Shown here: piece by piece, positions 1,451-57,895 of the stretch
How the letters are laid out: each line of letters opens with the position of its first letter
Position numbering within the stretch: position 1 is the stretch's first letter
From: Chiloscyllium plagiosum
Lineage: Eukaryota
DNA: 64,000 nucleotides
Assembly: GCF_004010195.1 (NCBI RefSeq)
Contig: NC_057753.1
Coordinates: forward strand, 101,439-165,438
Direction of reading: 5' to 3'
Made by a program: the position numbers and the translations under genes
Notes under the pieces: generated by a model
Databases searched by the model: none
The model's input: the letters and a program-made list of their open reading frames with translations, nothing else
Told to the model about the DNA's origin: nothing

Positions 1451-1511
1451 TTTGGACTTGGGAGGAAACCAGAGCCCCCAGAGGAAACCCACACAGACAT
1501 GGTGGGGGAGG

Positions 1512-3601: not shown

Positions 3602-3665
3602 GACAATTTAGCATGGCCTAGCCACCCAAACCTGCACAATTTTGGATTGTGGGAGGAACGCCACG

Positions 3666-12505: not shown

Positions 12506-15500
12506 TTGTTAATTTCCAATTGTGTTCTGGCCTCACATCACCACCTGAGGGAGCCATTGCATCTTCTATTCAGTTGTTCACTTTCACTCTGTCCTTATGA
12601 TCAGTTAAGTTCACTTCTCCTTCTCCCTTGTTATAAAGATCCTTTCTGCTCTTTTGATACCTGTGCGCAGGGTGACCTTATAAAGTCATGAGGGGCACGG
12701 ACAAAGTGAATGGTGGGTGTCCTTTCCCTGGGGGGGGGGGGGGGGACATTTCAAGACTGGGGAGGGGAGCACTTTTATAAGGCGAGAGGAGAAAGATTTA
12801 AATGAAGACATGAGGGTCATTTGTTGTATTTTTTTTGAACACAGAGAGTGGGTTGTGAACTTCCAGAGGTGGATGCATGTGCAGTCACAACATTTAACAA
12901 GCATTTGGATAAAGACATGGGGAGGAAAGGAGGGATGTGGACCAGGAGCAGGCAGGTGGGCCTACTTTCCTATGGGATTATGGTCAGCGTAGAATGTTCT
13001 GACCGAAAGGCCAGTTTCCGTGCTGCATGACCCTATAACTTGTCAGAACGCTGCTCTTTTTAACAAGATTATGTTGTCTTTGATTGTTTTTTCAAAGAGT
13101 TCTGATTAGATTTCCGACAGTGTGGAAACAGGCCCTTCGGCCCAACCAGTCCACACCGACCCTCTGAAGCGTAACCCACTCAGACCCATTTCCCTCTGAC
13201 TAATGCACCATGGGCAACCTGCACATCTTTGGACTGTGGGAGGAAACCGGAGCACCCGGAGGAAACCCACGCAGTCACGGGGAGAATGTGCAAACTCCAC
13301 ACAGTCAGTCGCCCCGAGGCTGGAATCGAACCTGGGACCGTGGTGCTGTGAGACAGCAGTGCTAACCCACTGAGCCACAGTGCCACCCCAGGGTTTTACG
13401 GCCAAATTGATTATAGCTAACGGACACTGCCTCAGGAAAAGGTTTTTAAAACCTTTTTTTTTGTAAAAACAAAATCACTTCTACAATGAAAGGGGAGCGG
13501 CTCAGCTTTTCTTTGGTTTGAGCTGTTCAGAGGGGCCGGTCAGTTTTAAGCTGGGGAATCCAGCGACAGTAGAACAAGGTTCCCTGCTAAATCTCTCTGC
13601 CACCTGTCCCTCCTGTCAGACCCGGTGATCAATTTTACCTCCTTGCGCCGAGGGGTGATTATAGGGATTGTTTGGAACAGCGTACTTAAGTCAGGATGAT
13701 CTGTTGGGTTTTCTGTCCTCTTCTGTTTGCCTTTCATTTGGTAATGCCAGTGGTCTCATTGAGTCTTAGAGATGTACAGCACAGAAACAGACCCTTCAGT
13801 TCAACTCCTCCATGCCGCCCAGATATCCCAACCCAATCTAATCCTGTTTGTCAGCACTTGGCCCATGTCTCTTTAAACCCTTCCTATTCATATACCCACG
13901 CGGATGCCTTTTAAACATTGCAATTGTACCAGCCTCCACCACTTCCTCTGGCAGCTCATTCCACACATGCACCACCCTCTGTGTGCTAGAGTTTCCCCTA
14001 AGATCCCTTTTATGTCTTTCCCCTCTCACCCTAAACCTATGCCCTCTAGTCTGGACTCCCCCACCCCAGGGAAAAGACTATTTATCCTATCCATGCCCCC
14101 TCATGATTTTATAAAGCACTGTTTTGTTGAAAACTGACTGGTCAGGCCTGTTACAGCACTCCGTGTTACATCTGCTTAAAACAACTAGCAAACGCAGGGT
14201 CTGGGTCATTTGCTTGAAATATTTCGGCAGGGGGGAGGGTCTGGCCCAGTCCGGAACAAACTGTCCATAGAATCGTAGAATTGCTTGAGTGCAGGAGACC
14301 ATCCGGGCCTGCGCTGGACAGTTGCTTGGTGTGAAGCTCATGACTTTGCCCCATTTCTGTTCAAGCACTCACCACTGCGGCCCTCTTGAATGGGCGGCAC
14401 GGTGGCTCAGTGGTTAACGCCACTGCCTCATGGCACCAGGGGCCTGGAGTCCATTCCAGCCTCGGGGTGACTGCCTGTGTGGGGTTTGCACGGCCCTCGT
14501 GGGTTTCCTCCCGCAATGGGAGAAAGTGAGGACAGCAGATGCCGGAGATCAGGCAGCATCCGAGGAGCAGGAGAGTCGACGTCTCGGGCATAAGCCCTCC
14601 ATCAGGAATCCCACAGTCCAAAGATGTGTAGCTTAGAGCGAATTGGCCTTGCTAAATTGCCCCATAGTGTTCAGGGGTGTAGAGGTTAGGTTCATTAGTC
14701 AGGGGAAACGTAGAGTGGTAGGGGAATGAGTCTGGGCCGGATACTCTTCAAAGGGCCGGTGACGACTTGTTGGGCCGAAGGGCCTGTTTCCACACTGTAG
14801 GGGGTGCTATGATCTACCACCACACTCTGAATGCTTCAGTTGAACCTGCCTCCACCACATTGCCAGGCAATGCATTCTATACCCTATCTACCCCAATGGG
14901 GCGGCACCGTGGTTAGCACTGCTGCCTCACAGCGCCAGGGACCCGGGTTCGATTCCAGCCTCGGGCGACTGTCTGTGTGGACATTGTATCTCCTGTTGTC
15001 CAAAGATGAACAGGTTGGGGTGCGGCAGTGGTGGGAAGGATGTGCAGATTAGGGATATTAAACGCGAAAGGGATAGGGTACTGAGTGGGCCCGGATGGGA
15101 TACTCTTCGGAGGGTTGGTATGCACCCGACGGGCTGAATGGCATCCACACTGGAGGGATTTGACGATTGGCTGTTTGAAGAAGTGTGTTTTCGCTTTGTT
15201 GGCACGTCACTTAAAATCTGTACCCTCCCCCAAATCCTCGCTCTCCTTTTTTGCTCTTTTACAAAGCGGTTATCGCTTCTCTCTGTGTACCCTGTCCCGG
15301 ACTTTGAAAACCTCTGTCAAACCCCCTTCTTGTCTCCGAGGCGGATAGTTCTCTATTTACCTGTAGCGGACGTTTCTCGTTCCCGCAGCCACTGGTGCAC
15401 TTGTTGTTTAAAAATTCACTCAGGGGACGAGGGCATCACTGGCCAGGCCTAGAATTTATAGCCCCATCCCTATAGTTGCCCAGAGGGAAGGTAAGAGTCA

Positions 15501-16205: not shown

Positions 16206-17470
16206 TGGCTCAGTGCTTAGCACCGCTGCCTCACAGCACCAGGGATCCCAGGTTTGATTCCGGCCTCGGGTGACTGGCCGTGTGGAATGTGCACATTCTC
16301 CCCGTGTCTGCGTGGGGGTCTCCCAGAAACCAGAAAACTGCAGGTCAGGAGAATTGGCTGTGCTAAATTGCTCGTAGTGTTAGTGGGAGGAAAATGGGTC
16401 TTTGTGGGGGTTACTCTGCGGACGGTCAGTGTGGACCTGTCCCCACACTGTAGGGAATCTAATCATCCGTTGTGGGCAGGAGAGTTTTAGGCATAAGCCC
16501 TAACATTCCAGCCTCGGGGCGACTGACTGTGTGGAGTTTGCACATTCTCCCCGTGTCTGCGTGGGTTTCCTCCGGGATGCTCCAGTTTCCTCCCACAGTC
16601 CAAAAATATGCAGGTCAGGGTGAATTGGCCATGCTAAATTGCCCATCGTGCTAGGTGCATTAGTCAGGGGTAAATGTAGGGGAATGGGTCTGGGTGGGTT
16701 ACTCTTCGGAGGGGTCGGCGTGGACTTGACGGGCCGAAGGGCCTGTTTTCACACTGTAGGGAATCTAATCTAATCAGATCAAACATCTGTCCTACATCTA
16801 TCACCCCTCAGTTTAAAGCGACGTCCACTCATGCTAGCCGTCACCATCCGACGAAAAAGGCTCTTACAGTCCAACCCTATCTTACCCTCTGATAGTCTTG
16901 TATGTCTCTATTAAGTCACGTCTCTGCTCTCTAACGAACACAGCCTCGAGCCCCTCAGCCTTTTACGTAGTCTTTCGGTGTTCATCTGACCAAACTGCAT
17001 CATCTCACAGGTCTTTGCGTTGAACATGGTCTTGCCATCGATCTACCAATTTGCCGACATCCTTTTGGAATTCACAATTTCCAAATTCTTCCAGGTTTTG
17101 CATCATCCCCGACCATGGGCATCCAGAAACAGCAGGGGATTCTCCTCTCTGTCCCTTTGTAACCCCCCCACGCCTCACCCCGTCCAACCTCTGAACAGGT
17201 CTCCGGGTTCACAGTCTAAGGGATAAAGGGGTGAGCCATTCGGGACTGAGCTGAGGGAGAATTCCTTCGCTCGGGGAGATGCGAACCCACGGAATTCCCT
17301 CCCTCCCCCCCCCCCCCCAGAAAGCCGCTGGGGCCGGTGCGTTGGATATATTCAACGGGGATCTGGACATGGCCCTGGGGGCTGAAGGGATATGGGAGCA
17401 GGAATACTGAGATCGTGTGGTTGGCCAGACCCGAAGGGCTGAAAGGCCTACTCCAGCAGACAATTTTTAT

Positions 17471-20368
17471 GTTAGATTCCCTCCAGTGTGGAAATAGGCC
17501 ATTTGGCCCAATGAGTCCATACTGACCCTTTGAAGGGTAACCAACCCAGACCAATTCTCCTACATTTACCCCTGACCAATGCATCTAACCTACACATCCC
17601 TGGGCACTCTGGGTAATTTAGCATGGCCAGTCCACCCTAACCTACACATCCCTGGGCACTATGGGTAATTTAGCATGGACAATACACCTTAACCTACCCA
17701 TTCCTGGGCATTATGGGTAATTTACCTGGGCCAATCCACTCTAACCGACACATCCCTGGGCACCATATGTAACTTAGCACAGCCAATCCACCATGACCTG
17801 CACATCCCTGGGCATAGAACATGGAACAATACATCACAGAATAGGCCCTTCTGCCCTCGATGTTGCGCGAACCTGTGAACTATTCTCAGCTCCTCCCCCT
17901 ACACCATCCCATCATCATCCATGAGCTTATCTAAGGATTGTTTAAATCTCCCTAATGTGGCTGAGTTGACTACATTAGCAGGTAGGGCATTCCATGTCCT
18001 TACCACTCTCAGCGTAAAGAACCTGCCTCTGATATCTGTCTTAAATCTATCGCCCCCTCAATTTGTAGTTATGCCCCTTCATACAAGCTGACGTCATCGT
18101 CCTAGGAAAAGGACTTTCACTGCCTACCCTCTCTAATCCTCTGACCATGTCTCTGTCAAATCCCCTCTTAGCCGCCTTCTTGCCAATGAGAACAGACCCA
18201 AGTCTCTCAGCCTTTCCTCATAAGACCTTCCGTCCAGACCAGGCAACATCCTGGTAAATCTCCTCTGCACCTTTTCCAATGCTTCCACATCCTTCCCGAA
18301 ATATGGGGACCAGAACTGTACACAATATTCCAAGGGTGGCCGCACCAGCGTTTTATATAGTTGCAGCATGATATTGCGGTTCCGGAACTCAATCCTTCTA
18401 TGAATGAAACCTAACACACTGTATGCCTTCTTAACAGCACTATCCACCTGAGTGGCAACTTTCNNNNNNNNNNNNNNNNNNNNNNNNNNNNNNNNNNNNN
18501 NNNNNNNNNNNNNNNNNNNNNNNNNNNNNAACTGGACTCCAGACTGAATATTTTCCATCAACTACCACTCGCTGCCTTCTTTCAGAAAGCCAGTTTCTAA
18601 TCCAAACTGCTAAATCACCCTCAGTCCCATGCCTCAGCATTTTCCCCAACAGCCCACCATGTGGAACCTTATCAAAGGCTTTACTGAAGTCCATGTACAC
18701 CACGTCAACTGCCCTACCCTCATCCACATGCTTGGTCACCTTCTCAAAAAACTCAGAGGTTTGTGAGACACGACCTGCCCTTGACAAAACCATGTTGACT
18801 ATCTGAAATCAAATTGTTGCTGGCTAGATGATTATAAATCCGATCTCTAATATTCCTTTACAAAATCTTTCCTACAACAGAAGTAAGGCTCACTGGTCTA
18901 TAATTACCTGGGTCATCTATGCTGCCCTTCTTGAACAAGGGCACAACATTTGCAATCCTCCAGTCCTCAGGTACTAAACCCGTAGACAATGACGACTCAA
19001 ATATCAATGCCAAAGGCTCTGCTATCTCCTCCCTGGCTTCCCAGAGAATCCTCGGATAAATCCCATCCGGCCCAGGGGACTTGCCTATTTTCACTCCTTC
19101 TAGAATTGATAACACCTGTGTGTAACTAACCTCGATCCTTTCGAGTCTAATATCTCATACCTCATTCTTCTCCTCTACAATATTCTCCTTTTCCTGAGTG
19201 AAAACNNNNNNNNNNNNNNNNNNNNNNNNNNNNNNNNNNNNNNNNNNNNNTTTTATTCCGCACATACCTATAGAAAGCTTTAGGGTTCTCCTTTATTCTA
19301 TTTGCTAAAGACTGCTCGTGTCCTCTCTTTGCTCTTCTTAACTCTCTCTTTAAATCTTTCTGAGCTGATCTGTAACTCAAACTAAGGGTAATTTAGCATG
19401 GCCAATCCACCCTAACCTGCACATCCCTGTGCATTGTGGGTAATTTAGCACGGCCAATCCACCTGAACCTACACATCCCTGGGCATTGTGGGTAATTTAG
19501 CATGGCCAATCCACCCGAACCTACACATCCCTGTGCATTGTGGGTAATTTAGCACAGCCAATCCACCCTAACCTACACATCCCTGGGCACTATGGGTAAT
19601 TAACCATGGCCCATCCACCCTAACCTGCACATCCCTGTGCATTGTGGGTAATTTAGCATGGCCCCTCCACCCTAACCTGCACATCCCTGTGCATTGTGGG
19701 TAATTTAGCACGGCCAATCCACCCTAACCTGCACATCCCTGTGCATTGTGGGTAATTTAGCACGGCCAATCCACCCTAACCTGCACATCCCTGTGCATTG
19801 TGGGTAATTTAGCATGGCCCCTCCACCCTAACCTGCACATCCCTGTGCATTGTGGATAATTTAGCACGGCCAATCCACCCTAACCTGCATATCCCTGTGC
19901 ATTGTGGGTAATTTAGCATAGCCAATACACCCTAACCTGCACATCCCTGTGCATTGTGGGTAATTTAGCATGGCCAATCCACCCTAACCTGCACATCCCT
20001 GTGCATTGTGGGTAATTTAGCACGGCCAATCCACCCTATCCTACACATCCCTGGGCATTGAGGGTAATTTAGCTTGGCCAATCCAACCTAACCCACACAT
20101 CCCTGGGCATTGTGGGTAATTTAGCATGGCCAATTCACCCTAAATTGCACATCCCTGGGCATTGTGGGTAATTTACCTGGACCAATCCACTCTAACCTGC
20201 ACATCTTCGGACTGTGGGAGGAAACCAGAGCACCCGGGGGACACCCACGCAGACGCCGTGGGGGAGGGGAGAATGTGCAAACTGCACACAGACAGTCACC
20301 CTGAGGCTGGAATCAAACCCGGGTCCTTGGCATTGTGAGGCAGCGGTGCTAACCACTGAGCCACCCCA
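17471..20368 (-). mobile_element. HE1-like V-SINE with expanded 52-bp array (17585-17813 and 19381-20205), split by a CR1 insertion
   Basis: LINE-derived tail at 17471-17585, tRNA-like head at 20300-20368, about 20 monomers either side of the CR1 fragment. Confidence 0.85.
17813..19380 (-). mobile_element. CR1-clade LINE, ORF2 RT fragment plus 3' tail (two small gaps)
   Basis: KSPGPDGIYPRIL...NYRPVSLTSVVGK, VDVVYMDFSKAFDKVPH, LYKTLVRPPLEYCVQFWSP. Confidence 0.92.
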
Positions 20369-23249: not shown

Positions 23250-23606
23250 TAGAATCTTAGAATCCCCTACAGTGCGGAAACAGGCCGTTCGCCCAACAAG
23301 TCCACACCGACCCTTCGAAGAGTAACCCACCCAGACCCATTCCCCTACCCTATTACCCGACATTTACCCCTGACCAATGCATCTTACCTACACGTCCCTG
23401 AACACTACGGGCAATTTAGCGTGGCCAATTCACCCTAACCCGCACATCTTTAGGACTGTGGGAGGAAACTGGAGCACCCAGAGGAAACCCACGCAGACAC
23501 GGGGAGAAGGGGAAAATCCACACAGACAGTCGCCAGAGGCTGGAATCCAACCTGGGACCCTGGTGCGGTGAGGCAGCAGTGCTAACCACTGAGCCACTGT
23601 GCCACC
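23250..23606 (-). mobile_element. Full-length HE1-like V-SINE (other - copies at about 3900-4145, 13105-13390, 58973-59305)
   Basis: Reverse complement of the same head/core/tail layout. Confidence 0.88.
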
Positions 23607-24940: not shown

Positions 24941-25411
24941 ATTGTGGGAGATTCATTATAACTCAAGCAGCCATCTTGTCGCATACTAAAAGCCTGGAAT
25001 CCATTTTAATTTTCATGTTCGTGTCCTCTTGTACATTCCCAGGCTCAGTGTGGTGGCTGTCCTTGAGGCTGTACTAGCACCTGATAGTGAAACTCTTTCC
25101 CAGTATGGGAATGTTCTTTTTATACAAGAATCTACTGTTATACTAACACTTGGTTATCAGCTACTAACCAGCACTGTGCAGACACTCCGTGACTGAGGCT
25201 GGTGACTGGGCAAAGTGCCCAATTACTCATTATACTGCAATTAACAGTTTGCTAATTGTTAAATGATTGTAACCTGCAAAATCACGCAACTCTCTGCATC
25301 TCGTCAGAGTGGCTTGTGACCATTAGGTCAACTGGTCTCTCCCAGTGAGCTCACCAATAAACAGTCAAACTCAAGTTTTGCATGGCGCAATTCATTGCTC
25401 CCCTAAGTTAC

Positions 25412-25733
25412 GGGGTGGCCCGGTGGCTCAGTGGTTAGCACTGCTGCCTCACAGCCCCAGGGTCCCAGGTTCGATTCCAGCCTTGGGCGACTGACTGTGT
25501 GGAGTTTGCACATTCTCTCCGTGTCTGTGCGGGTTTCCTCCGGGTGCTCCGGTTTCCTCCCACAGTCCAAAAGGTGTGCGGGTTAGGTGAATTGGCCAGG
25601 CTAAACTGCCCGTAGTGTTAGGTGAAGGTGTAAATGTAGGGGTATGGGTCTGGGGTGGGTTGCTCTTCGGAGGGTCGGTGTGGACTTGTTGGGCTGAAGG
25701 GCCTGTTTCCACCCTGTAGGGAATCTAATCTAA
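25412..25733 (+). mobile_element. Full-length HE1-like V-SINE (other + copies at about 10093-10380, 14392-14810, 14897-15155, 16203-16462, 16505-16775)
   Basis: tRNA-like head with A box (tggctcagtgg) and B box (ggttcgattcc), central ctgtgtggagtttgcacattctc core, CR1-derived tail ending aatctaatct. Confidence 0.9.
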
Positions 25734-26021
25734 TTTAAATTGGACTGTTAAATTGGACAGTCACCCCACTGCATAATTTATCCCAGCCCCAACAGACGGG
25801 AACAGGAAAGGGTTGGAGGGATATGGGCCGGGAGCAGGCTGGTGGGATTAGTTTAGTCTGGGATTCCGTTTAGCCTGGGCTGGTTGGGCCGAAGTGTTTG
25901 TGCCAGAGGATGATGACATTTTCGCTTTGCTCCCCCCCTCTACAACCCTCATCTTTCAAGGCGGTCAGGTAAAGTGAGCCTCGCTTCAATACAAAGGATG
26001 CAAATACCTCCAAGAGAAATA

Positions 26022-26510
26022 ATTTGGAGGAGCCGGTGTTGGACTGGGGTGTACAAAGTTAAAAATCACACAACTGAGCTGAAAATGTGTTGCTGGAAAA
26101 GCGCAGCAGGTCAGGCAGCATCCAGGGAACAGGAGAATCGACGTTTCGGGCATAAGCCCTTCTTCAGGAGGGCTTATGCCCGAAACGTCGATTCTCCTGT
26201 TCCCAGGATGCTGCCTGACCTGCTGCGCTTTTCCAGCAACACATTTTCAGCTCTGATCTCCAGCATCTGCAGACCTCACTTTCTCCTTAAAAATCACACA
26301 ACACCAGGTTATAGTCCAACAGGTTTATTTGGAAGCACTAGCTTTCGGTGCGACGCTCCTTCATCAGGTGGTTGTGGAGAATAAGATCGTACGACACAGA
26401 GTTTACAGCAAAGATTTACAGTGTGATGTAACTGAAATTATACATTGAAAAGGACTTGGATTGCTTGTTAAGTCTCTCATATGTTAGAATGACCATGTTG
26501 ATTTGAGCTC
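26022..26510 (-). mobile_element. PLE-like family 2 fragment with nested family-1 fold-back (26075-26286)
   Basis: 16-bp duplication ttaaaaatcacacaac at 26059-26074 and 26287-26302. Confidence 0.72.
26336..26370 (-). ncRNA. Minimal hammerhead-ribozyme-like motif, PLE-like family 2 (also 12294-12328 on -; degenerate at about 628-665 and 6287-6314 on +)
   Basis: cac-CTGATGA-A-GGAGC(GTC)GCACC-GAA-AGCT-A-gtg: helix I cac/gtg, helix II, palindromic AGCT helix III. Confidence 0.62.
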
Positions 26511-27607
26511 TTCCATGTTGGAATATTGCGTGCAATTCTGGTCTCCTTCCTATCGGAAAGATGTTGTGAAACTTGAAAAGGGTCCGGAAAAGATTTACAA
26601 AGGTGTTGGAGGGTTTGAGCTGTAGGGAAGAGGCTGAACAGGCTGGGGCTGTTTTCCCTGGAGCGTCTGAGGCTGAGGGGTGACCTGAGAGAGGTTTATA
26701 AAATTATGAGGGGCACGGATAGGATAAATAGACAAAGTCTTTTCCCTGGGGCGGGGGAGTCTAGAACTAGAGGGGCATAGGTTTAGGGTGAGCGGGGAAA
26801 GATATAAAAGAGACCTAAGGGGCAACATTTTCACACAGAGGGTGTTACGTGTATGGAATGAGCTGCCAGAGGAAGTGGTGGAGGCTGGTACAATTGCAAC
26901 ATTTAAGAGGCATCTGGATGNNNNNNNNNNNNNNNNNNNNNNNNNNNNNNNNNNNNNNNNNNNNNNNNNNNNNNNNNNNNNNNNNNNNNNNNNNNNNNNN
27001 NNNNNNNNNNNNNNNNNNNNNNNNNNNNNNNNNNNNNNNNNNNNNNNNNNNNNNNNNNNNNNNNNNNNNNNNNNNNNNNNNNNNNNNNNNNNNNNNNNNN
27101 NNNNNNNNNNNNNAGGGGAGTGGGGAAGAGAGCGGGGTAGAGAGAGAGACAGAGATGGGCAGATAAGGGGGGGGGGGGTTGCTCCTTTCTAGAGAACCCA
27201 CTTTAGCCCCGATGAATGTCGGTCTTCCCGCCAACAGTGAGTGGTTGAGGGGAGCAGCGGGAATACATTTCAGGGGAAGCTGGATTCCGACAACAGAAGG
27301 ATACGCTGATGGAGGGCTGGGGGGGCCGAGGGGTGAGATAGATTGAGGCGGATACCAGGAGTCTTGATGGGACACAGACAAATGGAAAATTGATGCGCAC
27401 ATACAGGAAAACATCCCAGGTTACGCAAAATGCATTTCCTCAGTCTCTGTGGGACACAGCAGTGGGGAAGGTGCAGACCTGGGCTCATAGAATTCCCGAC
27501 GGTGTGAAAGCAGGTATTTAACCCAACGAGTCTACACCAACCCTCTGAAGATTACCCAATCCAGACCCATTCCCTCATCCCTACTGCTCTGCATTTACCT
27601 CTGACTA

Positions 27608-30600
27608 ATGCACCCTAACCTGCATATCCCTGGAGACTATGGGTAATTTAGCATGGCCAATGCACCCTAACCTGCACATCCCAGGCACCATGGGTAATTT
27701 AGCATGGCCAATCCACCTTCACCTGCACATCCCATGGCACCATGGGTAATTTAGCATGACAATTCACCCTAACCTGCACAGCCCTGCGCACTACGGGCAA
27801 TTTAGATTGGCCAATCCACTCTAACCTGCACATCCCTGGATACTGTGGGTAATTTAGCTTGGCCAATCACTCTATTATGCACATACCGGGACACCATGGG
27901 TAATTTAGCATAGCCAACCCCCCAGTCTAACCTGCAAAGCACAGGGCACTATCAGTAATTTAGCATGACTAATCCACTCTAACCCACACATCCCAGGAGA
28001 CTATGGGTAATTTAGCACAGCCAATCCACCCTAATCTGCACATCCAGGGGCACTGTGGGTAATTTAGCACAGCCAATCCACCCTAACCTGCACATCCAAG
28101 GGCACTATAGGTAATTTAGCATGGCCAATCTACCCTAACCCACACCTCGCTGCACGCTATGGGTAATTTAGCATGACCAATCCACCCTAACCTGCACATG
28201 CCATGGCATTGTGGGTAATTCAGCATGGCCAATCCACCCAAACCTACATGCCCCTGGGCATTATGGGTACTTTAGCACAGCCAATCCACCCTAACCTAAA
28301 TGCCCTTTGGCATTATGGGTGATTAGCAAGGCCAATCCACCCTAACGTGCACATCCCTGTACACCATGGGTAACTTAGCACAGCTAATCCACAATAACCA
28401 GCACATCCCAGGGCACGATGGGTAATTTGGCACGGCCAATCCACCCTAACCTGCACATCCCTTCACAGTGTGGGTAATTTAGCACAGCCAATCCACCTTA
28501 AAATGCACATCCCTGGACACTATCGGTGATTTAGCATGGCCAATCCACCCGAACCTGCACATCCCAGGGCACTATGGGTAATTTAGCATGGCCAATCCAC
28601 CCTAACCTGCACATCCCTGTGTCACTATGGGAAATTTAGCATGGCCAATCCACCCTAACCCGCACATCCCTTCACAGTGTGGGTAATTTAGCACAGCCAA
28701 TCCACCTTAAAATGCACATCCCTGGACACTATCGGTGATTTAGCATGGCCAATCCACCCGAACCTGCACATCCCAGGGCACTATGGGTAATTTAGCATGG
28801 CCAATCCACCCTAACCTGCACATCCCTGTGTCACTATGGGAAATTTAGCATGGCCAATCCACCCTAACCCGCACAACCCTTCACAGTGTGGGTAATTTAG
28901 CACAGCCAATCCACCTTAAAATGCACATCCCTGGACACTATCGGTGATTTAGCATGGCCAATCCACCCGAACCTGCACATCCCAGGGCACTATGGGTAAT
29001 TTAGCATGGCCAATCCACCCTAACCTGCACATCCCTGTGTCACTATGGGAAATTTAGCATGGCCAATCCACCCTAACCCGCACAACCCTTCACAGTGTGG
29101 GTAATTTAGCACAGCCAATCCACCTTAAAATGCACATCCCTGGACACTATCGGTGATTTAGCATGGCCAATCCACCCGAACCTGCACATCCCAGGGCACT
29201 ATGGGTAATTTAGCATGGCCAATCCACCCTAACCTGCACATCCCTGTGTCACTATGGGAAATTTAGCATGGCCAATCCACCCTAACCCGCACAACCCTTC
29301 ACAGTGTGGGTAATTTAGCACAGCCAATCCACCTTAAAATGCACATCCCTGGACACTATCGGTGATTTAGCATGGCCAATCCACCCGAACCTGCACATCC
29401 CAGGGCACTATGGGTAATTTAGCATGGCCAATCCACCCTAACCTGCACATCCCTGTGTCACTATGGGAAATTTAGCATGGCCAATCCACCCTAACCCGCA
29501 CAACCCTTCACAGTGTGGGTAATTTAGCACAGCCAATCCACCTTAAAATGCACATCCCTGGACACTATCGGTGATTTAGCATGGCCAATCCACCCGAACC
29601 TGCACATCCCAGGGCACTATGGGTAATTTAGCATGGCCAATCCACCCTAACCTGCACATCCCTGTGTCACTATGGGAAATTTAGCATGGCCAATCCACCC
29701 TAACCCGCACAACCCTTCACAGTGTGGGTAATTTAGCACAGCCAATCCACCTTAAAATGCACATCCCTGGACACTATCGGTGATTTAGCATGGCCAATCC
29801 ACCCGAACCTGCACATCCCAGGGCACTATGGGTAATTTAGCATGGCCAATCCACCCTAACCTGCACATCCCTGTGTCACTATGGGAAATTTAGCATGGCC
29901 AATCCACCCTAACCCGCACAACCCTTCACAGTGTGGGTAATTTAGCACAGCCAATCCACCTTAAAATGCACATCCCTGGACACTATCGGTGATTTAGCAT
30001 GGCCAATCCACCCGAACCTGCACATCCCAGGGCACTATGGGTAATTTAGCATGGCCAATCCACCCTAACCTGCACATCCCTGTGTCACTATGGGAAATTT
30101 AGCATGGCCAATCCACCCTAACCCGCACAACCCTTCACAGTGTGGGTAATTTAGCACAGCCAATCCACCTTAAAATGCACATCCCTGGACACTATCGGTG
30201 ATTTAGCATGGCCAATCCACCCGAACCTGCACATCCCAGGGCACTATGGGTAATTTAGCATGGCCAATCCACCCTAACCTGCACATCCCTGTGTCACTAT
30301 GGGAAATTTAGCATGGCCAATCCACCCTAACCCGCACAACCCTTCACAGTGTGGGTAATTTAGCACAGCCAATCCACCTTAAAATGCACATCCCTGGACA
30401 CTATCGGTGATTTAGCATGGCCAATCCACCCGAACCTGCACATCCCAGGGCACTATGGGTAATTTAGCATGGCCAATCCACCCTAACCTGCACATCCCTG
30501 TGTCACTATGGGAAATTTAGCATGGCCAATCCACCCTAACCCGCACAACCCTTCACAGTGTGGGTAATTTAGCACAGCCAATCCACCTTAAAATGCACAT

Positions 30601-33600
30601 CCCTGGACACTATCGGTGATTTAGCATGGCCAATCCACCCGAACCTGCACATCCCAGGGCACTATGGGTAATTTAGCATGGCCAATCCACCCTAACCTGC
30701 ACATCCCTGTGTCACTATGGGAAATTTAGCATGGCCAATCCACCCTAACCCGCACAACCCTTCACAGTGTGGGTAATTTAGCACAGCCAATCCACCTTAA
30801 AATGCACATCCCTGGACACTATCGGTGATTTAGCATGGCCAATCCACCCGAACCTGCACATCCCAGGGCACTATGGGTAATTTAGCATGGCCAATCCACC
30901 CTAACCTGCACATCCCTGTGTCACTATGGGAAATTTAGCATGGCCAATCCACCCTAACCCGCACAACCCTTCACAGTGTGGGTAATTTAGCACAGCCAAT
31001 CCACCTTAAAATGCACATCCCTGGACACTATCGGTGATTTAGCATGGCCAATCCACCCGAACCTGCACATCCCAGGGCACTATGGGTAATTTAGCATGGC
31101 CAATCCACCCTAACCTGCACATCCCTGTGTCACTATGGGAAATTTAGCATGGCCAATCCACCCTAACCCGCACAACCCTTCACAGTGTGGGTAATTTAGC
31201 ACAGCCAATCCACCTTAAAATGCACATCCCTGGACACTATCGGTGATTTAGCATGGCCAATCCACCCGAACCTGCACATCCCAGGGCACTATGGGTAATT
31301 TAGCATGGCCAATCCACCCTAACCTGCACATCCCTGTGTCACTATGGGAAATTTAGCATGGCCAATCCACCCTAACCCGCACAACCCTTCACAGTGTGGG
31401 TAATTTAGCACAGCCAATCCACCTTAAAATGCACATCCCTGGACACTATCGGTGATTTAGCATGGCCAATCCACCCGAACCTGCACATCCCAGGGCACTA
31501 TGGGTAATTTAGCATGGCCAATCCACCCTAACCTGCACATCCCTGTGTCACTATGGGAAATTTAGCATGGCCAATCCACCCTAACCCGCACAACCCTTCA
31601 CAGTGTGGGTAATTTAGCACAGCCAATCCACCTTAAAATGCACATCCCTGGACACTATCGGTGATTTAGCATGGCCAATCCACCCGAACCTGCACATCCC
31701 AGGGCACTATGGGTAATTTAGCATGGCCAATCCACCCTAACCTGCACATCCCTGTGTCACTATGGGAAATTTAGCATGGCCAATCCACCCTAACCCGCAC
31801 AACCCTTCACAGTGTGGGTAATTTAGCACAGCCAATCCACCTTAAAATGCACATCCCTGGACACTATCGGTGATTTAGCATGGCCAATCCACCCGAACCT
31901 GCACATCCCAGGGCACTATGGGTAATTTAGCATGGCCAATCCACCCTAACCTGCACATCCCTGTGTCACTATGGGAAATTTAGCATGGCCAATCCACCCT
32001 AACCCGCACAACCCTTCACAGTGTGGGTAATTTAGCACAGCCAATCCACCTTAAAATGCACATCCCTGGACACTATCGGTGATTTAGCATGGCCAATCCA
32101 CCCGAACCTGCACATCCCAGGGCACTATGGGTAATTTAGCATGGCCAATCCACCCTAACCTGCACATCAATCCACCCTATCGTGCACATCCCGGGACACC
32201 ATGAATAATTCAGCAAGGCCAATCCATTCTAACCGCAAATCCCAGGGCACTATGGGTAATTTAGCATGGCCAACTGATCCTAACCTGCACATTCCTGGAC
32301 ACTATGGGTAATTTAACATTGCCAATCCACCCTGACCTGCACATGCCACAGCACTGTGGGTAATTAGCTTGGCCAATCCACCCTAACGTGCACATTCCAG
32401 GGGACTGTGGGTAATTTTCCGTTGGCAATCCACCCTATCGTGCACATCCCGGGACACCATGAATAATTCAGCAAGGCCAATCCATTCTAACCGCAAATCC
32501 CAGGGCACTATGGGTAATTTAGCATGGCCAACTGATCCTAACCTGCACATTCCTGGACACTTTGGGTAATTTAGGATGGCCAAACCACCCTAACATGCAG
32601 ATTCCTGGACACTATGGGTAATTCAGCAAGTCCTTTCCACCCTAACCTACATGCCCCTGGGCACTATGGATAATTTAGCATGGCCCATCCAGCATAACTG
32701 ACACCTTCCTGCAAACTATGGGTAATTCAGCATAGCCAGTCAACCCTAACCTGCACATCCTACACACTATGGGTAATTTAGCACAGCCAATCCACCCTAT
32801 CATGCACATCCGTGGGCACGATGAGTAATTTAGCACAGCCAATCCACCCTGACCTGCACGTCCCTGGGCACTATGGGTCATTTAGCATGGCCAATTGACC
32901 CTATCATGCACATCCCTGGGCACAATGAGTAATTTAGCTTGGCCAAGCCACCCTAACCTACATACCTTTGGGCACTATGGGTAATTTAGCACGGCCAATC
33001 CACCCTAACATGCACATCCCTGCACACTGTGGGTAATTTAACATGGATAATTCACATTAACCTGCACATTTCTGGACAGTATGGGTAATTTAGCATGGCC
33101 ATCCATCCTGACATGCACTTTCCTGCACACTATGGACAAGTTCGCATAGCCAATCCACCTTAACCTACATATCCCTGTGATACTGTGGGCAATTTAGCAT
33201 GGCCAATCCACACTAACCCGCACATCCCTACACATAATGGGGAATGTAGTATGGCCAATCCATCCTAAGCTGTACATCCTTGGACACTATTGGTAATTTG
33301 CACGGCCAATCCACCCTCACCTACATATCCCTGGACACAATGGGTAATTTAGCATGGCCAATCCACTCTAACCTGCAAATCCCAGGGCACTATGGGTAAT
33401 TTAGCATGGCCAAACCACCCTAACATGCAGATTCCTGGGCACTATGGGTAAATTAGCATGGCTAATCCAATGTAACCTGCACATCCCAAGGCACTATGGG
33501 TAATATAGCATGGCCATCCACCCTAAGCTGCACATCCCTGCACACTGAGTAATTTAGCACAGCCAATCCACCCTATCATGCATGTCCCTGGACGCTATGG

Positions 33601-35905
33601 GTCATTTAGCATGGCCAACCCACCCTATCATGCACATCCCTGGGCACGATGAGTAATTTAGCTTGGCCAATCCACCCTAACCTACATGCCTCTTAGCACT
33701 ATGGGTAATTTAGCATGACCAACCCACCCTAACATGCACATCCCTGCACACATGGGTAATTCAACATGGATAATTCACACTAACCTACACATTTCTGGAC
33801 AGTATGGGTAATTTAGCATAGCCAATCCACCCTAACCTACATATCCCTGTGATACTGTAGGCAATTTAGCATGGCTAATCCACCCTAACCTACACATCCC
33901 TTCACAATGTAGGTAATTTAGCTTAGCCAATCCACCCTAACCTGCACTTTCCTGCACACTGTGTGGAATGTAATATGGCCAATCCATTCTAACCTGCATA
34001 TTCCAGGGCACTATGGGCAATATAGCATGGCTAATTCACCCTAACTTGCACATCTCTGGACACTATGGGGAATGTAATACGGCCAATCCATCCTAACCTG
34101 CAAATCCCTGGGCACTGTGGGTAATTTAGCAAGGTCAATTCACTCTAACCTGCAACATGCTTGGATGCTACGAGCAATTTAGCATGGCCAATCCATTCTA
34201 ACCTGCACATCCCAGGCATTCTGGGAAATTTAGCATGGCCAATCCACCCTAACCTGCACATCCCTGGGCATTATGGATAATTTAGCATGGCCAATCCACC
34301 CTAACCTGCACATCCCAAGGCACTATGGGTAATTTAGGATGGCCAATCCACCCTAACCTGCACATCCCTGTGTCACTATGGGAAATTTAGCATGGCCAAT
34401 CCATTCCATCCTGCACATCCCAGGTCACTATGGGTAATTTAACATGGCCAATCCACCCAACTGCATATCTCTGCACAGTACGGGTAATTTAGCATGGCCG
34501 ACTCACCCTAACCTGCACATCCCTGGAGATTATGGATAATTTAGTACGGCCAATCTATTCTAACCTGCACATCCCAGGGCACTGTGGGTAATTTTACATA
34601 GCCATCCACCCTACCCTGCACATCCCTTCAGTGTGGGTAACTTAGCATAGCCAATCCACGCTAACCTGCACATCCCAGGGCACTATGGGTAATTTAGTAT
34701 GGCCAATCCATTCTAATCTGCACATGCCAGGGCATTATGGCCATGCTAAATTACCCATCATGTTAAGGGATGTGCAGGTTAGGGTGGATTGGTCATGCTA
34801 AATTACCTAATTCACCCTAACCTGCACATCCCTTCACACAACGGGTAAATTTGCACAGCCAATCCACCCTAACATGCACATCCCTGGAGACTATGATTAA
34901 TTTAGCACATCCCATCACACTATGGGTAATTTAGCATAGCCAATCCACCCTAACCTGCACATCCCTGGGCACTATGGGTAATTTAACATTGCCAATCCAC
35001 CCTAACCTGCACATGCCACAGCACTGTGGGTAATTAGCTTGGCCAATCTACCCTAACTTGCACATTCCAGGGGACTGTGGGTAATTTTCCGTTGCCAATC
35101 CACCCTATCGTGCACATCCCCGGACACCATGAATAATTCAGCATGGCCAATCCATTCTAACCTGCAAATCCCAGGGCACTATGGGTAATTTAGCATGGCC
35201 AATTGATCCTAACCCGCACATTCCTGCACACAATGGGTAATTCAGCATAGCCAGTCAACCCTAACCTGCACATCCCAAGGCACTATGGGTAATATAGCAC
35301 GGCCATCCACCCTATCATGCACATCCTACACACTATGGGTAATTTAGCACAGCCAATCCTCCCTGACCTGCACGTCCCTGGGCACTATGGGTCATTTAGC
35401 ATGGCCAACCCACCCTAACATGCACATCCCTGCACACTATGGGTAATTTAACATGGATAATTCACATTAACCAGCACATTTCTGGACAGTATGGGTAATT
35501 TAGCATGGCCAAACCACCCTAACCTACATATCCCTGTGATACCATGGGCAATTTAGCATAGCCAATCCCCCCTAACCTGCACTTTACTGCACACTGTGGG
35601 GAATGTGGTATGGCCAATCCATTCTAACCTGCAACATGCCTGGACACTGAGGTACGTAGTATGGCCAATCCGTCCTAATCTGCAAACCCCAGTGCACTAT
35701 GGGTAATTTAGCATGGCCAATCCCCCCTAAACTGCACATCCCAGGGCACTATGGGTAATGTAGCACAGCCAATCCACTCTATCCTGCACATCCCTTCACA
35801 ATGTGGATAATTTAGCTCTGCCAATTCCCCAGAAACTGCACATCCCGGGACGCTATGGTAATTTAGCACCACTATTCCACCCGAACCTGCACATGCCTGG
35901 GCAGC
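27608..35905. repeat. 8.3-kb satellite of a 52-bp SINE-derived monomer (about 160 monomers)
   Basis: Consensus ccctgggcactatgggtaatttagcatggccaatccaccctaacctgcacat repeated head to tail; continuous with a minus-strand SINE tail at 27488-27607. Confidence 0.97.
28461..32168. repeat. Higher-order repeat core: 209-bp unit (4 monomers), about 17.7 near-identical copies
   Basis: Marker cttcacagtg recurs at 28461, 28670 ... 32014 (exactly 17 x 209). Confidence 0.92.
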
Positions 35906-35926
35906 ATGGGTACCTTAGCTTGGTTG

Positions 35927-36769
35927 TCACTGGTGTGTTCTCTGGTGCGTCAGCAGCACGGAGAGCAGAGTGAAGCCTTTCCCACAGGCCGGGCAGACGT
36001 AAGGCCTCTCGCCGGTGTGGACCCGCTGGTGGGTCAGCAGGTATGACGAGCGTGTGAAGGCCTTGCCGCACTGCGAGCAGGCGAAGGGCCTCTCCCCCGC
36101 GTGGACCCGCCGGTGGGTCAGCAGCGTGGACGAGTCGCCGAAGGCCTTCCCGCACTCGGGGCAGCTGAAGGGCCTCTCCCCGGTGTGGACCCGCCGGTGG
36201 GTGCGCAGGTTGGACGACTTGGTGAAGCCCTTCCCGCACACGGGGCAGCTGAAGGGCCTCTCCCCCGTGTGGACGGGCCGGTGGGTCAGCAGGTGGCACG
36301 ACTGAGTGAATCCCTTCCCGCACTCGGAGCAGACGAACGGCCTCTCCCCGGTGTGCACCCGCTGGTGCTTCTGCAGGGTGGACGAGTCCTTGAAGGCCTT
36401 CCGGCACTCGGGGCAGCTGAAGGGCCTCTCCCCAGTGTGGACCCGCCGGTGCCTCAGCAGGGCGGAGGAGTCTCTGAAGCCCTTGCCGCAGTCAGAGCAG
36501 GCGAACGGCCTCTCGCCCGCGTGGACCCGCCGGTGGGTCAGCAGGGCGGCCGAGTGGGTGAAGCCCTTCCCACAGACGGGGCAGCTGAACGGCCTCTCCC
36601 TGGTGTGGACCTGCCGGTGTCTCTCCAACGACGATGACTTAGTGAAGCCCTTCCCGCAGTCGGGACAGGCAAACGGCCGCTCCCCGGTGTGGACGCGCCG
36701 GTGGATCTCCAGCGCGGAGGGGGAGCGGAAACCGATCCCGCAGTGGCCACATTTCCAGGGTTTCTCCAT
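35927..36769 (-). CDS. C2H2 zinc-finger protein (gene A), 280 aa, 10 tandem fingers, no KRAB/SCAN/BTB domain in the ORF
   Basis: ORF from ATG at 36769 (MEKPWKC...) with ten CxxC-x12-HxxxH repeats joined by TGERP-type linkers; very GC-rich codons; the ORF-track start at 36817 is a TTG. Confidence 0.93.
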
Positions 36770-37099
36770 GATGCAGGCGCCCGTGAAGCGAGATCCTCGT
36801 CCTGAGACAGTAGCCAAGCACGCAGTCTCTGCTCACGATAAATGCTGCCTTATCAGGTTGTGCAATTGGGTAAAACTCTCCCCATCGTCAGTTCACAGGA
36901 ACGCTCTCTACGTGCACTTCAAAGCTATCCCAGGTGGTTACAACCTTTTGAAACAAACAGAACCAACAACCAGTTACTTCCTCTGGACTTAAATGCTGAT
37001 GGTAGTCACTCCCTGGTAAATCAAGCAACTCTGATGCGATGATACTACGGCCTTAAGGGATCCGTTTCGTTCTTTTTAAAGGAAAGGTTTTCAGAGAGA

Positions 37100-37345
37100 G
37101 CCAAAGTGAGGCCTGCAGATGGTGGAGAGTCAGAAACAAAAAGAGTGTTGCTGGAAAAGCACAGCAGGTCAGGCAGCATCCGAGGAGCAGGAGAGTCAAT
37201 GTTTCCAACATCAGCCCTTCAGCAGGAATGAAGGGCTCCCGGTCCTGATGAAGAGCTGATGCTCAAAACGTCAACTCTCCTGCTCCTCTGACGCATACTG
37301 ACAGGCTGTGCTTTTCCAGCACCACTCTTTTTGATGCTGACCCTC
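37100..37345. mobile_element. PLE family 1 fold-back insertion (similar copies at 22980-23172, 47890-48062, 55495-55695)
   Basis: gctggaaaagcacagcagg... followed by its reverse complement ...gctgtgcttttccagc. Confidence 0.72.
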
Positions 37346-37412
37346 CACAGTTTTTGACTTGAAGACAGAGATGCCAAAATGTCTATTTGGAAAGCCAATA
37401 AGCTCAACAACT

Positions 37413-37940
37413 TGTGAGGCCTTGTATTTTTTTTTTATTAAGAAAGTTTGAACAATAGAAGCAGCCTGAATGGGTGTGGTCCAGCTCCCACTGAAACAGG
37501 TTTTTTTTTATTTTAGCTTTCAGCAATTGCTGATGGGGTCTTGAAGAAGCAGAAGCTATTTTTTCCCCCTCTTGGTTACAACTAAAGGCTGGGGGAATCT
37601 CTTCCTGTTGCTTGAGACATAGTCTATCTTCTGAAATTGCCCGTTGCCAAGAGTATGTTTATGGGATGTTGCTATATTGGAACAGTTACTGTTTCAAAGT
37701 CAACTAATCTATTATTCTATTCAATTGTCCAATAGAATTACAGCTAAGCCAATTATTTTCTTTTGTCATATTTTAACTACAACATATGAATAAGTTGTGT
37801 TTTGCTTTAAGTCACGTACTTTAGCCAATTGAATCACATCTGGAATGCAATACCTTACACTTATCTTTAAACTAAGAAAACGTTAGGGTCTAAGCTACCT
37901 TCTCAATATACTTTGAGGGAGGTTGGCCTGGTCGATTACA
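37413..37940. mobile_element. Solo LTR (family Y, opposite orientation) within the gene A 5' region
   Basis: TGT...ACA termini; reverse-complement similarity to 44593-45246; no clear TSD. Confidence 0.6.
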
Positions 37941-38437
37941 CTTAGTTTGAGATTTGTGTCTGAAATTCCTCCCCTTAAAATATCTTGGAAATGGAACATA
38001 CTAAAAGATAGGGCAAACATTCAGAACAGAGTCTAGAATAGAGTGATACTGGTGCTGTGCTTTTCCAGCACCACTCTAATCTCGACTCTGATTCCCAGTC
38101 CTCACTTTTGCATGGAAATTCAGATCAGACCATTCCAGTTGGAGCAAATTACTGCAGATGCTGGAATCTGTACCGAAAACAAAAAAAAAACCCCTGGGCA
38201 TCTAGACTGGAAACCTCAGTTTGCACTCTCTCCCTGGATGTTGCCTGACCCGCTGTGACCTCTCCAGAATTTGTTTTGCTTTCAGACAATTCCAGTTCCC
38301 TTGCAACATTCCTTCTTCTCTCGACCCCCAAAAGCTGTAAGTCTCCACCCCACATTCCCTGCCTCCCTTCTCATTACTTTGGCGCAGCTCATATCCCACT
38401 CCCCATTGCCCTGAAGGGTCTGATCGACCCGTCCCAC

Positions 38438-39174
38438 GCTTACCTCTTCCTGTCCTGCTCAGAGAGTGAGGGCTGAAAAATCTTCGGGTAGACAAGAGCG
38501 GAATAGGACGCAAATGGGTTTGATGCAGGCGTCCAAGGAAGGAGCTGGTGTCTGGAATGAAGGAGGATAAAATACAGCAGCGTGTGTGTGTGTGTCCCAG
38601 AGGAAGTGCATTGATGCTGGTCCCCCAGTTGCAAACGCCCCCTGGGTCTATCCCGTTGCAAAGTGCTGTCCTTCCAAACAAGACTGACACAGTCTGCAGC
38701 CAAACCCTCTGCTGGGATTCCAGGGGAAAGAGTTGGAGAGGGGGACTGCGCATGGGCGGGAGGACTGGCCACTGACGTCATAAAGAGCGATGTCCGGATT
38801 GACCAATAGGAAACCTTGGAGGACCGGAAGGAATTAGGTCCTCCTGCCAATCAGAGGCCCCCCCCCGTTGTCTGAATGCGGAAGTTGGACCATGAGCTCT
38901 TGAAGTTGCTGCTGCTGCTGTCTCTCTGAAACTGCGCATGGGCGGGAGGACTGGCCACTGACGTCATAAAGAGCGATGTCCGGATTGACCAATAGGAAAC
39001 CTTGGAGGACCGGAAGGAATTAGGTCCTCCTGCCAATCAGAGCCCCCCCTGTTGTCTGAATGCGGAAGTTGGACCATGAGCTCTTGAAGTTGCTGCTGCT
39101 GCTGTCTCTCTCTGAATGAAGACTGAGCTTCAGGCCAGACTGCAGCTTCCTTCCTCTGTCCAACATCTGTGAGT
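38438..39174. promoter_or_regulatory. Putative bidirectional promoter and first exons of genes A (-) and B (+), cassette copy 2
   Basis: TGCGCATG (NRF1-like), GGGCGG, TGACGTCA (CRE), paired CCAAT boxes and ETS sites, all doubled by a 186-bp tandem duplication; plus-strand donor GTGAGT at 39169, minus-strand donor GAG|GTAAGC at 38443. Confidence 0.75.
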
Positions 39175-42072: not shown

Positions 42073-42584
42073 CCAGGTTGCGCCTTTGCCAATCCGGCCC
42101 AGGGTGGCTGTGCGCCGCGTCCCATTCTGACTGTGGACGAAGTGGGAAGGGTTCCCTTCTGCTGGATTGGCTGCTGTCACTTTATTTGCAGTGAGGGCCT
42201 GATGCCCTTTGAACCCAGCGCGCTCCTGCGGAAACTAGCCGCGGAGGTGGCGGGGGGGTCCACCTGTTGCTGAGTAACGCTGTGGATGCTTCTCCCCCTC
42301 GCGTCAGGACACATGCGCAAGAATGCCAAGCCTCCGAGGGAACGGCACTCTATTCTGGGCCAAGTGAGGGCTGCTGATTGGTCCCTCCGATTGGTCGAAG
42401 TGACCACCAACAATTGTTCCCCCTGTTGTATTAAAGATGTAAAATATTCATTGTATCGTTTAGGAATGTGGATTTTAAAATGGTGACAAAAATGCACATT
42501 TCAATTTTGTGAGGGTGGCATTTTTTTGTCTCTTTAGAGACCAGGGAGCTGCTTTTTCTTTTGGGGGGGGGGGGGGAATGTCAG

Positions 42585-50294: not shown

Positions 50295-50762
50295 AGATTA
50301 GATTATATTTGATTCCCTACAGTGTGGAAACAGACCCTCCGGCCCAACAAGTGCACACCGACCCTCTGAAGAGTAACCCACCCAGACCCATTCCCCTACA
50401 CATCTCTGAACGCTCTGGGTAATTTAGCATGGCCAATCCACCCTAACCTGCACATCCCTGGGCACTATGGGTAATTTAGTACAGCCAATCCATTCTAACC
50501 TGCACATCCCTGGGCACTATGGGTAATTTAGCATAGCCAATCCACCCTAACCTGTACATCCCTGAACACTTTGAGTAATTTAGCACGGCCAATTTCTGCC
50601 TGCACATCTTTGGAGCGTAAGAGGAAACAGGAGCACTCGGGGGAACCCCACACCGACATAAGGGGGAGAATGTGCAAACTCCACACACACAGTCGCTCCG
50701 GGGCTGGAATCAAACCCAGGTCCCTAACGCTGTGAGGCAGCAGAGCTAACCGCTGTGCCACT
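50295..50762 (-). mobile_element. V-SINE with about 4 tandem 52-bp units
   Basis: Complete SINE with an internal array at 50410-50605. Confidence 0.88.
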
Positions 50763-57012: not shown

Positions 57013-57184
57013 AGACTTGGAGGAAGGGGGTGGGCTTGGATCCTGCTGCTGTGAGTCGCCCTCGGGCCTGAGTCGGGTTCACTCAGACAATGGCTGGAGT
57101 GGGAGGGTTCCTTTCTCCTGCACAGACCCCTCTCTCCCACTTGGATTCCAGCGCGGCCGGTGCTCAAGCGATGGTAGGACCCCC

Positions 57185-57895
57185 ACCGCTTGGAAGCAGG
57201 CCATTCAGCCCGATGAGGCCACGCCGACCCTCCAAAGAGCATCCCACCCAGACCCAAACCTTCCCCCCCCGTCCCTGACCCTGTGACACTGCATTTCTCA
57301 CAGCTAACCCGCCCAGCCTGCACATCCCAGGGCACTATGGGACAATTTAGCATGGCCAATCCACCCGAACCTGCACATCCCAGGGCACTATGGGACAATT
57401 TAACACGGCCAATCCACCCTAACCTGCACATCCCAGGGCACTGTGGGTAATTTAGCACAGCCCATCCACCCTAACCTGCACATCCCGCGGCACTGTGGGT
57501 CATTTAGCACAGCCCATCCACCATAACCTGTACACCCCGGACACTGTGGGTAAATTAGCATGGCCAATCCACCCTAATCTGCACATCCCTGGGCACTGTG
57601 GATAATTTAGCATGGCCAATCCACCCTAATCTGCACATCCCTCGGCACTGTGGGTAATTTAGCATGGCCAATCCACCCTAACCTGCACATCCCTGGGCAC
57701 TGTGGGTAAATTAGCATGGCCAATCCACCCTAACCTGCACATCGTTAGACTGTCAGAGGAAACCCTCGTAGACACAGGTTGGGGGGGGGGGGGGGGTGAC
57801 TGTCTGTGTGGCGTTTGCGCAGTCACCTCGAGGGTCGAATCGAACCCAGGTCCCTGCCGCTGTGAGGCAACAGCGCTAACCACGGAGCCACCTTT
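57185..57895 (-). mobile_element. V-SINE with about 8 tandem 52-bp units, in the probable 3' UTR of gene C
   Basis: Array at 57316-57742; AATAAA at about 58007 and 58037 downstream. Confidence 0.85.

Follow-up and report, generated by a model that had tools for sequence, protein, structure and literature searches.

What is an 8.3-kb tandem array of a 52-bp unit doing directly behind the stop codon of a zinc-finger gene, where did its unit come from, and how much of it is real? These questions are raised by a stretch of 64,000 nucleotides from the shark Chiloscyllium plagiosum (assembly GCF_004010195.1, contig NC_057753.1, forward-strand positions 101,439 to 165,438), hereafter the window, to which all positions below refer. 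We find it fairly probable that the array is an old minisatellite derived from a short interspersed element (SINE), that only 3 bp separate it from the stop codon of a zinc-finger (ZNF) gene, here gene A, which is spliced and whose RNA apparently enters it, and that it is a neutral passenger. The reading stands on what is shown: the origin of the unit, the structure of the array, its junction with gene A and the splicing of gene A.

Tandem Repeats Finder, run on the 64-kb window, delimited the array at 27607-35923, and cutting it into monomers gave 160 units, 94 of which are distinct. An array of about 160 monomers behind a ZNF stop codon is what the original prediction had proposed from the letters alone. 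The array sits within a V-SINE-like element whose 3' tail is kept (27488-27606, minus strand) and whose tRNA-derived head is gone, again as predicted; no SINE head was found between the array and gene A. The tail is of a kind shared with long interspersed elements (LINEs). Along the window the element is laid out as follows.

27488 to 27606, minus strand: 3' portion of the host SINE with its LINE-shared tail, which departs from the majority of the 14 tails compared at 22 of 89 bases.
27607 to 28443, minus strand: 16 diverged 52-bp units, on average 13.8% from the array majority.
28444 to 32168, minus strand: 209-bp four-unit higher-order block in about 17.8 copies, delimited by comparison at lag 209; the copy number is the value given by the assembly.
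32168 to 32303, no strand assigned: out-of-phase joint at 32168/32169, then an exact 136-bp copy of 32426-32561.
32169 to 35923, minus strand: about 72 diverged units (14-15% from the majority) with nested block duplications.
34738 to 34807, plus strand: a 70-bp stretch of the array inverted in place, about 1.1 kb beyond the stop of gene A.

Runs of units echo each other within the array, units 91-107 resembling units 143-153 and units 100-107 resembling units 116-120. The inversion is clean and has short inverted similarity at both ends. Folded with its neighbouring units (351 nt), it is predicted to reach -166 kcal/mol (z-score -8.5), and would give a long hairpin with those units if transcribed.

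The 52-bp unit is the middle segment of a shark V-SINE-like element. Alignment of ten single copies of this element separated a short form (six copies) from a long form (four copies) with 16 extra bases, and the array units hold these 16 bases and match the long form. The proposed derivation from an ordinary V-SINE is right about the SINE origin, but the copy that had been cited for it (25575-25625) is a short form in which 16 bp of the unit are missing. From the four long copies we obtain a majority sequence that aligns with itself at lag 51 over 48 bases with a score of 40, which none of 100 shuffles equalled, while the majority of the six short copies scores 22 (1 of 100 shuffles). The likely seed of the array is therefore an internal duplication in the long form, decayed and spaced by about 52 bp; such a seed would determine with which period and phase each expansion proceeds. 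The single copies that matter here are as follows.

23257 to 23606, minus strand: single-unit long-form SINE with the decayed internal duplication.
58970 to 59309, 14609 to 14813 and 2871 to 3037: further long-form copies.
25411 to 25740, plus strand: single short-form SINE, the example of the original prediction, without the 16-bp piece of the array units.

The assignment of the host to the V-SINE type draws on its head, centre and tail. In the tRNA-derived head, motifs resembling A and B boxes were read by eye in the single-copy alignment; ARAGORN found no intact tRNA. The arrays at 17-20, 50 and 57 kb have a head, and the 8.3-kb array lacks one. V-SINEs have a central V domain of about 80 bp, and here the comparison covered the published 20-base primer of the bivalve V-SINE BivaV-SINE2, which fits six places with one to three mismatches where none are expected. 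The SINE tail aligns over 46-68 columns to all four of the LINE-like 3' ends tried in the window, which are presumably CR1/HER1 ends.

With the array ending at 35923, its distance from the gene A stop is 3 bp and not the roughly 20 bp claimed earlier. To this region (35673-38700) four of 24 listed public runs were compared, denoted below by handles such as X1, X6 and X9. Gene A itself consists of the following parts.

35927 to 36769, minus strand: coding sequence of gene A, 280 amino acids, tandem C2H2 fingers; stop codon TGA at 35927-35929.
36943 to 38441, minus strand: intron of gene A (GT..AG), skipped in contigs of X6 and X9.
38442 to 38700, minus strand: first exon of gene A, extending at least to the end of the compared stretch.

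The junction, meaning the stop codon together with the array end, is spanned by a contig of X1 (35748-36032, 285 bases) and by a contig of X9 (35738-36032, 297 bases), each with one difference. Because the joint 36942-38442 is spliced in X6 and X9 and unique intron bins are at zero depth in both, we take these two runs to behave as RNA. The X9 junction contig reaches 185 bases into the array at a depth of 6.9, compared with 10.1 for the spliced contig, and an X6 contig covers 35744-35902. Since the contigs of X1, X6 and X9 all halt where a near-consensus unit starts, their ends do not mark the end of the RNA. It appears that the RNA of gene A runs at least 185 nt into the array, which would form the start of its 3' untranslated region (UTR), and the contigs across the junction support the entry into the 3' UTR that had been foreseen. 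Neither AATAAA nor ATTAAA occurs in the array, which contains five weak variants; the first AATAAA lies 9.6 kb past the gene A stop.

What became of the original 3' end of gene A can be approached through its two relatives in the window, genes B and C. These share a segment of about 90 bp soon after their stops (42110-42200 and 57068-57160), with a score of 46 against a best of 33 in 200 shuffles, and the segment is possibly a 3' UTR element of the family. Gene A shows no such segment, either behind its stop or past the SINE tail, where scores of 18-31 fall within the shuffle range, and no native gene A 3' UTR or target-site duplication was recognised beyond the tail in 27114-27487 or 25741-26920. 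Because the segment is missing on both sides of the element at gene A, the native UTR was presumably lost together with the SINE head.

Some further features of these genes deserve mention. The spliced leader of gene A (36770-36942 plus 38442-38700) is at least 432 nt long and holds two upstream ATGs. The finger-exon frames of genes A, B and C all begin with MEKPWKC, and there was no Pfam effector domain among the matches listed. Genes A and B stand head to head, and the stretch between them (38745-39111) is a 186-bp tandem duplication, 98% alike and differing mostly in homopolymer and dinucleotide lengths, which could represent two alleles assembled in tandem. The same stretch is motif-rich and, going by these motifs, presumably a bidirectional promoter.

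How old is the array? Its unique units lie 14-15% from the array majority and differ pairwise at a median of 13 of 52 bases. Recurring runs with one to five differences per unit (units 91-94 with 143-146; units 104-107 with 151-153 and 118-120) record older multi-unit duplications. The host SINE tail departs from the 14-tail majority at 25% of its compared sites and is the second most diverged of the 14; of the ten single-copy tails, seven are diverged by 4-10% and the other three by 16-22%. Because the units are this far apart and the tail this diverged, the array is not a satellite caught at birth, as had been suggested. The junction is, moreover, also present in X9, a run labelled as a second organism. 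The array is old, with a young core at most.

How long the array is depends on that core. Units 17-87 are a single 209-bp block of four units: comparison at lag 209 gave zero mismatches over 3501 bp (28668-32168), and only the opening two block copies vary, by single bases at 28452 and 28667, all copies thereafter being identical. The block ends out of phase at 32168. The exact 136-bp duplicate that follows is the sole other exact repeat of at least 70 bp in the array, and a unit of the block recurs exactly over 65 bp at 34339. The window contains N gaps of 895, 66, 45 and 193 bases, and these irregular sizes suggest a scaffold with estimated gap sizes. Gap closers are described in passages of PMC10265787 as miscounting tandem copies, GapCloser in one test turning 2.9 copies into 7.9. 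On balance, we lean towards regarding the 17-18 block copies, about 3.5 of the 8.3 kb, as a number made by gap filling or assembly, whereas the four-unit block itself is likely genuine in at least three copies. Since that copy number would thus be an estimate of the gap filling, we set the secure length of the array at about 5 kb, the unique array outside the block amounting to 4592 bp. The headline length of 8.3 kb hangs on a block whose copy number is that of the assembly, and becomes quotable once long reads confirm it.

The strongest competing explanation, which we rate somewhat lower but take seriously, is that all 8.3 kb are real, the 209-bp block having been amplified very recently as a higher-order repeat within an array that is itself old; homogenisation, not birth, would then be in progress. 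The two slightly different leading copies before the identical ones fit this explanation and indicate that a four-unit repeat of at least three copies is probably genuine. Passages of PMC10702118 likewise report SINE-derived satellites (sSats) of snakes with alternating subvariants and greater homogeneity in long loci, and the bases beside the array are accurate, no indel relative to X1 being listed over 3 kb. On the other hand, 3.5 kb without any mismatch argues against a fully real 8.3 kb, as do the abrupt out-of-phase end of the block next to the exact 136-bp duplicate, the 65-bp twin at 34339, which a k-mer graph would merge with the block unit, and the irregular N gaps of what looks like a scaffold with estimated gap sizes.

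The 8.3-kb array is one of five in the window. The other four are as follows.

1134 to 1515, minus strand: six-unit array (6.1 units at 1134-1450, Tandem Repeats Finder) with part of the SINE body and no tail.
17469 to 20365, minus strand: one complete SINE with 4.4 units (17585-17814) plus 15.8 units (19386-20205), split by a LINE.
50298 to 50762, minus strand: complete SINE with about four units (3.8 at 50395-50593) and a young tail (4 of 88 differences).
57191 to 57892, minus strand: SINE with eight units (8.2 at 57317-57743), antisense to gene C, its tail beginning about 175 bp after the gene C stop (57012).

The arrays announced as having 4, 6 and 8 units (50.4, 1.1 and 57.3 kb) were recovered as 3.8, 6.1 and 8.2 units, and the distance from the gene C stop to its array, given as 300 bp, measures about 280-300 bp. 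The 20 units claimed at 17.6-20.2 kb do belong to one SINE, with its tail at 17469 and its head at 20365, but they are divided by the 3' piece of a LINE of about 1.55 kb (about 17815-19380), which contains two N gaps and a weak RVT_1 match. This piece entered inside a unit, and the 15.8-unit side is 91% homogeneous compared with 82% on the 4.4-unit side, which suggests that the former expanded after the insertion. The array at 1.1 kb lies about 1.3 kb beyond a decayed C2H2 zinc-finger remnant (2772-4384, minus strand), itself interrupted by several SINE insertions. The short arrays contain no TTTT that would stop polymerase III. Summed contig depth of X1 was 137450 on the array-unit bin and about 5-8 in unique bins, a figure that does not equal copy number. 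A second, very abundant short repeat forms nested and head-to-head copies at 26020-26330 and 3050-3590, making inverted repeats, and its copy at 37087-37330 shows the highest depth of the run comparison.

Two of these arrays neighbour ZNF genes, and it is conceivable that arrays are selected or preferentially kept at ZNF 3' ends, where they would act on mRNA or chromatin through CCAAT sites, RNA duplexes or the seeding of heterochromatin. We regard this as improbable. Two of the three intact ZNF stops do have an array nearby, at 3 bp and at about 280 bp, and a further array lies 1.3 kb from the ZNF remnant; RNA-like contigs reach into the big array, and the inversion is predicted to form its hairpin; unit depth relative to another repeat of the stretch, a poor measure, is about 0.44 in X6 and 0.11 in X9 compared with 0.06 in X1. 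However, gene B has no array, the arrays at 17-20 kb and 50.4 kb are far from any ZNF end, the orientation of the array is not alike at genes A and C, and arrays are simply common locally, occurring on 5 of the 16 SINE copies whose sequence includes the unit region.

The sequence motifs do not speak for such a role either, being inherited from the SINE and lost from most of the diverged units. An NF-Y-type box and one CCCTAA had been ascribed to each unit; both motifs are present, but GGCCAATC occurs in only 84 of the 160 units (31 of 89 outside the perfect block) and CCCTAA 73 times, CCAAT being found in 125 of 160. Conservation was scored, as were derived bases, on 86 unique, regular units, with perfect copies and irregular units excluded. 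At 91%, conservation of the CCAAT columns modestly exceeds the 85% of the unit as a whole; CCAAT takes rank 4 among the 52 five-base windows, CCCTAA rank 32. These 86 units give no clear signal of selection on either motif. Proximity of arrays and ZNF genes may instead come about through shared genomic location: gene A has 91% GC at third positions, and shark small chromosomes and chromosome ends are described in parts of 10.1101/2022.10.17.512540 as richer in GC and tandem repeats. A functional link to ZNF genes is unproven.

Slightly less likely again is that each array was born separately from a single-unit SINE at its own locus, so that the window would display a time series of 1, 4, 6, 8, 20 and 160 units, the expansion series of the original prediction. 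The tails of the four array-bearing copies that have one are indeed of unequal age (4.5-25% diverged) and do not cluster, and the base of the single copies persists in tail-side units of the arrays at 1.1 kb and 57.3 kb. Elsewhere, however, a derived T is shared by 71 of the 86 unique units of the big array and by 4 of 5, 3 of 3, 15 of 15, 3 of 3 and 6 of 7 units in the other stretches (31 of 33 in all), and the single-unit copies have the alternative base in 10 of 10. Locus majorities differ from that of the big array at only 2-4 of 52 positions, and the derived change is not at a CpG, which makes five parallel mutations unlikely. Because the inner units of all five loci share a base that is absent from single-unit copies, the arrays are not independent births. 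The derived unit spread either via long-active array-bearing masters or via exchange of units between loci. A common tail subfamily of array-bearing copies was also considered and found no support, as the tails (95 columns) do not cluster.

A more far-reaching proposal, which strikes us as very doubtful, is that a V-SINE lineage of sharks carries its own self-homogenising 52-bp minisatellite, that this has repeatedly been captured as the 3' end of ZNF genes, and that double-stranded RNA could regulate ZNF mRNAs as a family. It takes up the differing orientations of the arrays, the one at gene A being sense and the one behind gene C antisense, together with the internal inversion; if it were true, ZNF mRNAs could pair with themselves and with one another. 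Finally, the feared misjoin at 35.9 kb, by which the array and gene A would be adjacent only in the assembly and to which the missing SINE head and the lack of a recognised target-site duplication might point, is refuted for practical purposes, as two independent contigs, one from each of two public runs, cross the junction with more than 100 bases on either side and a single difference.

Several observations weigh against an old, neutral array with a secure length of about 5 kb. Real arrays can hold perfect young blocks, the longest gecko loci reaching up to 100% similarity in passages of PMC10702118. The contigs give neither the strand nor the end of the RNA, and that X6 and X9 are RNA is itself something we infer; in the raw RNA run X21, of which 2% was read, there were zero reads at the junction, which is evidence in neither direction. 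The seed duplication is weak in individual copies: of three long copies tested, one stood at 5 of 200 shuffles and the remaining two fell short of significance, and a variant of the test on 30 bases gave a value at the shuffle maximum. An array lies within 310 bp of two of the three intact ZNF stops, for which random placement of five arrays gives 0.0025, the distance having been chosen post hoc. The array-bearing tails form no clade either (four changes on the 95-column tree compared with a shuffled mean of 3.7).

Taken together, we propose the following course of events. The decayed internal duplication of the long SINE form, with its spacing of about 52 bp, would have set the period and phase of expansion, a proposal that agrees with the direct-repeat model for minisatellites derived from transposable elements in passages of PMC3389668. 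A derived unit type would then have spread among loci, by array-bearing masters or by gene conversion between arrays. The 8.3-kb copy would have grown through repeated multi-unit block duplications, likely at its present site and through slippage or unequal exchange. The SINE head and the native 3' UTR of gene A were likely lost either in a deletion or through an insertion that was 5'-truncated and accompanied by target loss. The four-unit block is likely real in at least three copies, the 17-18 copies of the assembly being, more probably than not, an estimate of gap filling.

How does this array compare with known systems? The closest are the squamate sSat1-3, for which passages of PMC10702118 describe tandem sub-segments of a tRNA-derived SINE in a few to hundreds of units, terminal units that enter one or both SINE ends, long loci with alternating subvariants, a gradual transition between short internal duplications and long arrays, and counts that depend on assembly quality. 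The shark array is alike in all these respects. It differs in its V-SINE-like host, in a unit of 52 nt compared with about 67-290 nt, in a master with an older, decayed duplication as the likely seed, and in starting the 3' UTR of a protein-coding gene. As in sSats, the unit is a sub-segment shorter than its SINE, and at least four middle monomers with a terminal unit running into a SINE end are found at 27-36, 17-20, 57 and 1.1 kb; the 50-kb array, with 3.8 units, falls below four monomers. An sSat unit is shared by many loci across a genome, the long ones in subtelomeric position; for the shark unit the count is five loci, within the 64 kb of the window. Classical satellites are very long and homogenised, whereas this array spans at most 8.3 kb with a median of 13 of 52 differences between unique units. 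They are also associated with constitutive heterochromatin; the gene beside this array is spliced in two runs.

The host resembles HE1, the V-SINE listed for sharks and rays in a table of PMC3747384, whose partner LINE is HER1 (PMC3747384 and passages of PMC4824008). The two have in common a tRNA-like head with A and B boxes, a centre matching the V-SINE primer and a tail shared with LINE 3' ends, a likeness of features; the passages of both sources mention no internal minisatellite. Human minisatellites derived from transposable elements, including Alu arrays and LTR12, are traced in parts of PMC3389668 to direct repeats within the element and slippage or unequal crossing-over, with more units in older copies and, in LTR12, tandem repeats already in the master and spread by transposition. 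The human cases average about 2.3-2.4 units and have flanking repeats of 5-20 bp, whereas in the shark the likely seed is a decayed duplicate that is nearly complete, and four or more units are present in 5 of 16 local copies. The HCD-SINE arrays of the blood clam, in passages of PMC11481361, similarly have a head on the first unit, a tail on the last and truncated units between, many of them in genes, but consist of near-whole SINE units in 4-15 copies and are mostly intronic.

No account of the shark 52-bp repeat was found in the literature searched; Repbase, Dfam, SINEBase and the original HE1 papers lay outside that search and may hold a prior description. The supplements of PMC11406177, with a satellite table for the Y chromosome, contain neither of two unit motifs nor a shorter one, and the exact unit pattern gave no match in metagenome and viral contig collections, which need not contain shark DNA.

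Repeats of this kind are already known from snakes and lizards, and the array demonstrates neither a new mechanism nor a function. Its meaning lies in their distribution and origin. Vassetzky, Kosushkin and Ryskov (2023) describe it, in passages of PMC10702118, as uncertain whether such satellites are confined to squamates, and the present locus extends SINE-derived satellites to cartilaginous fish, a question that those authors left open. It is also an instance of a SINE-derived array that appears to start the 3' UTR of a spliced gene. Finally, it offers a concrete candidate for the seed of such arrays, a decayed internal duplication in one form of the SINE, which can be checked in any shark long-read genome.

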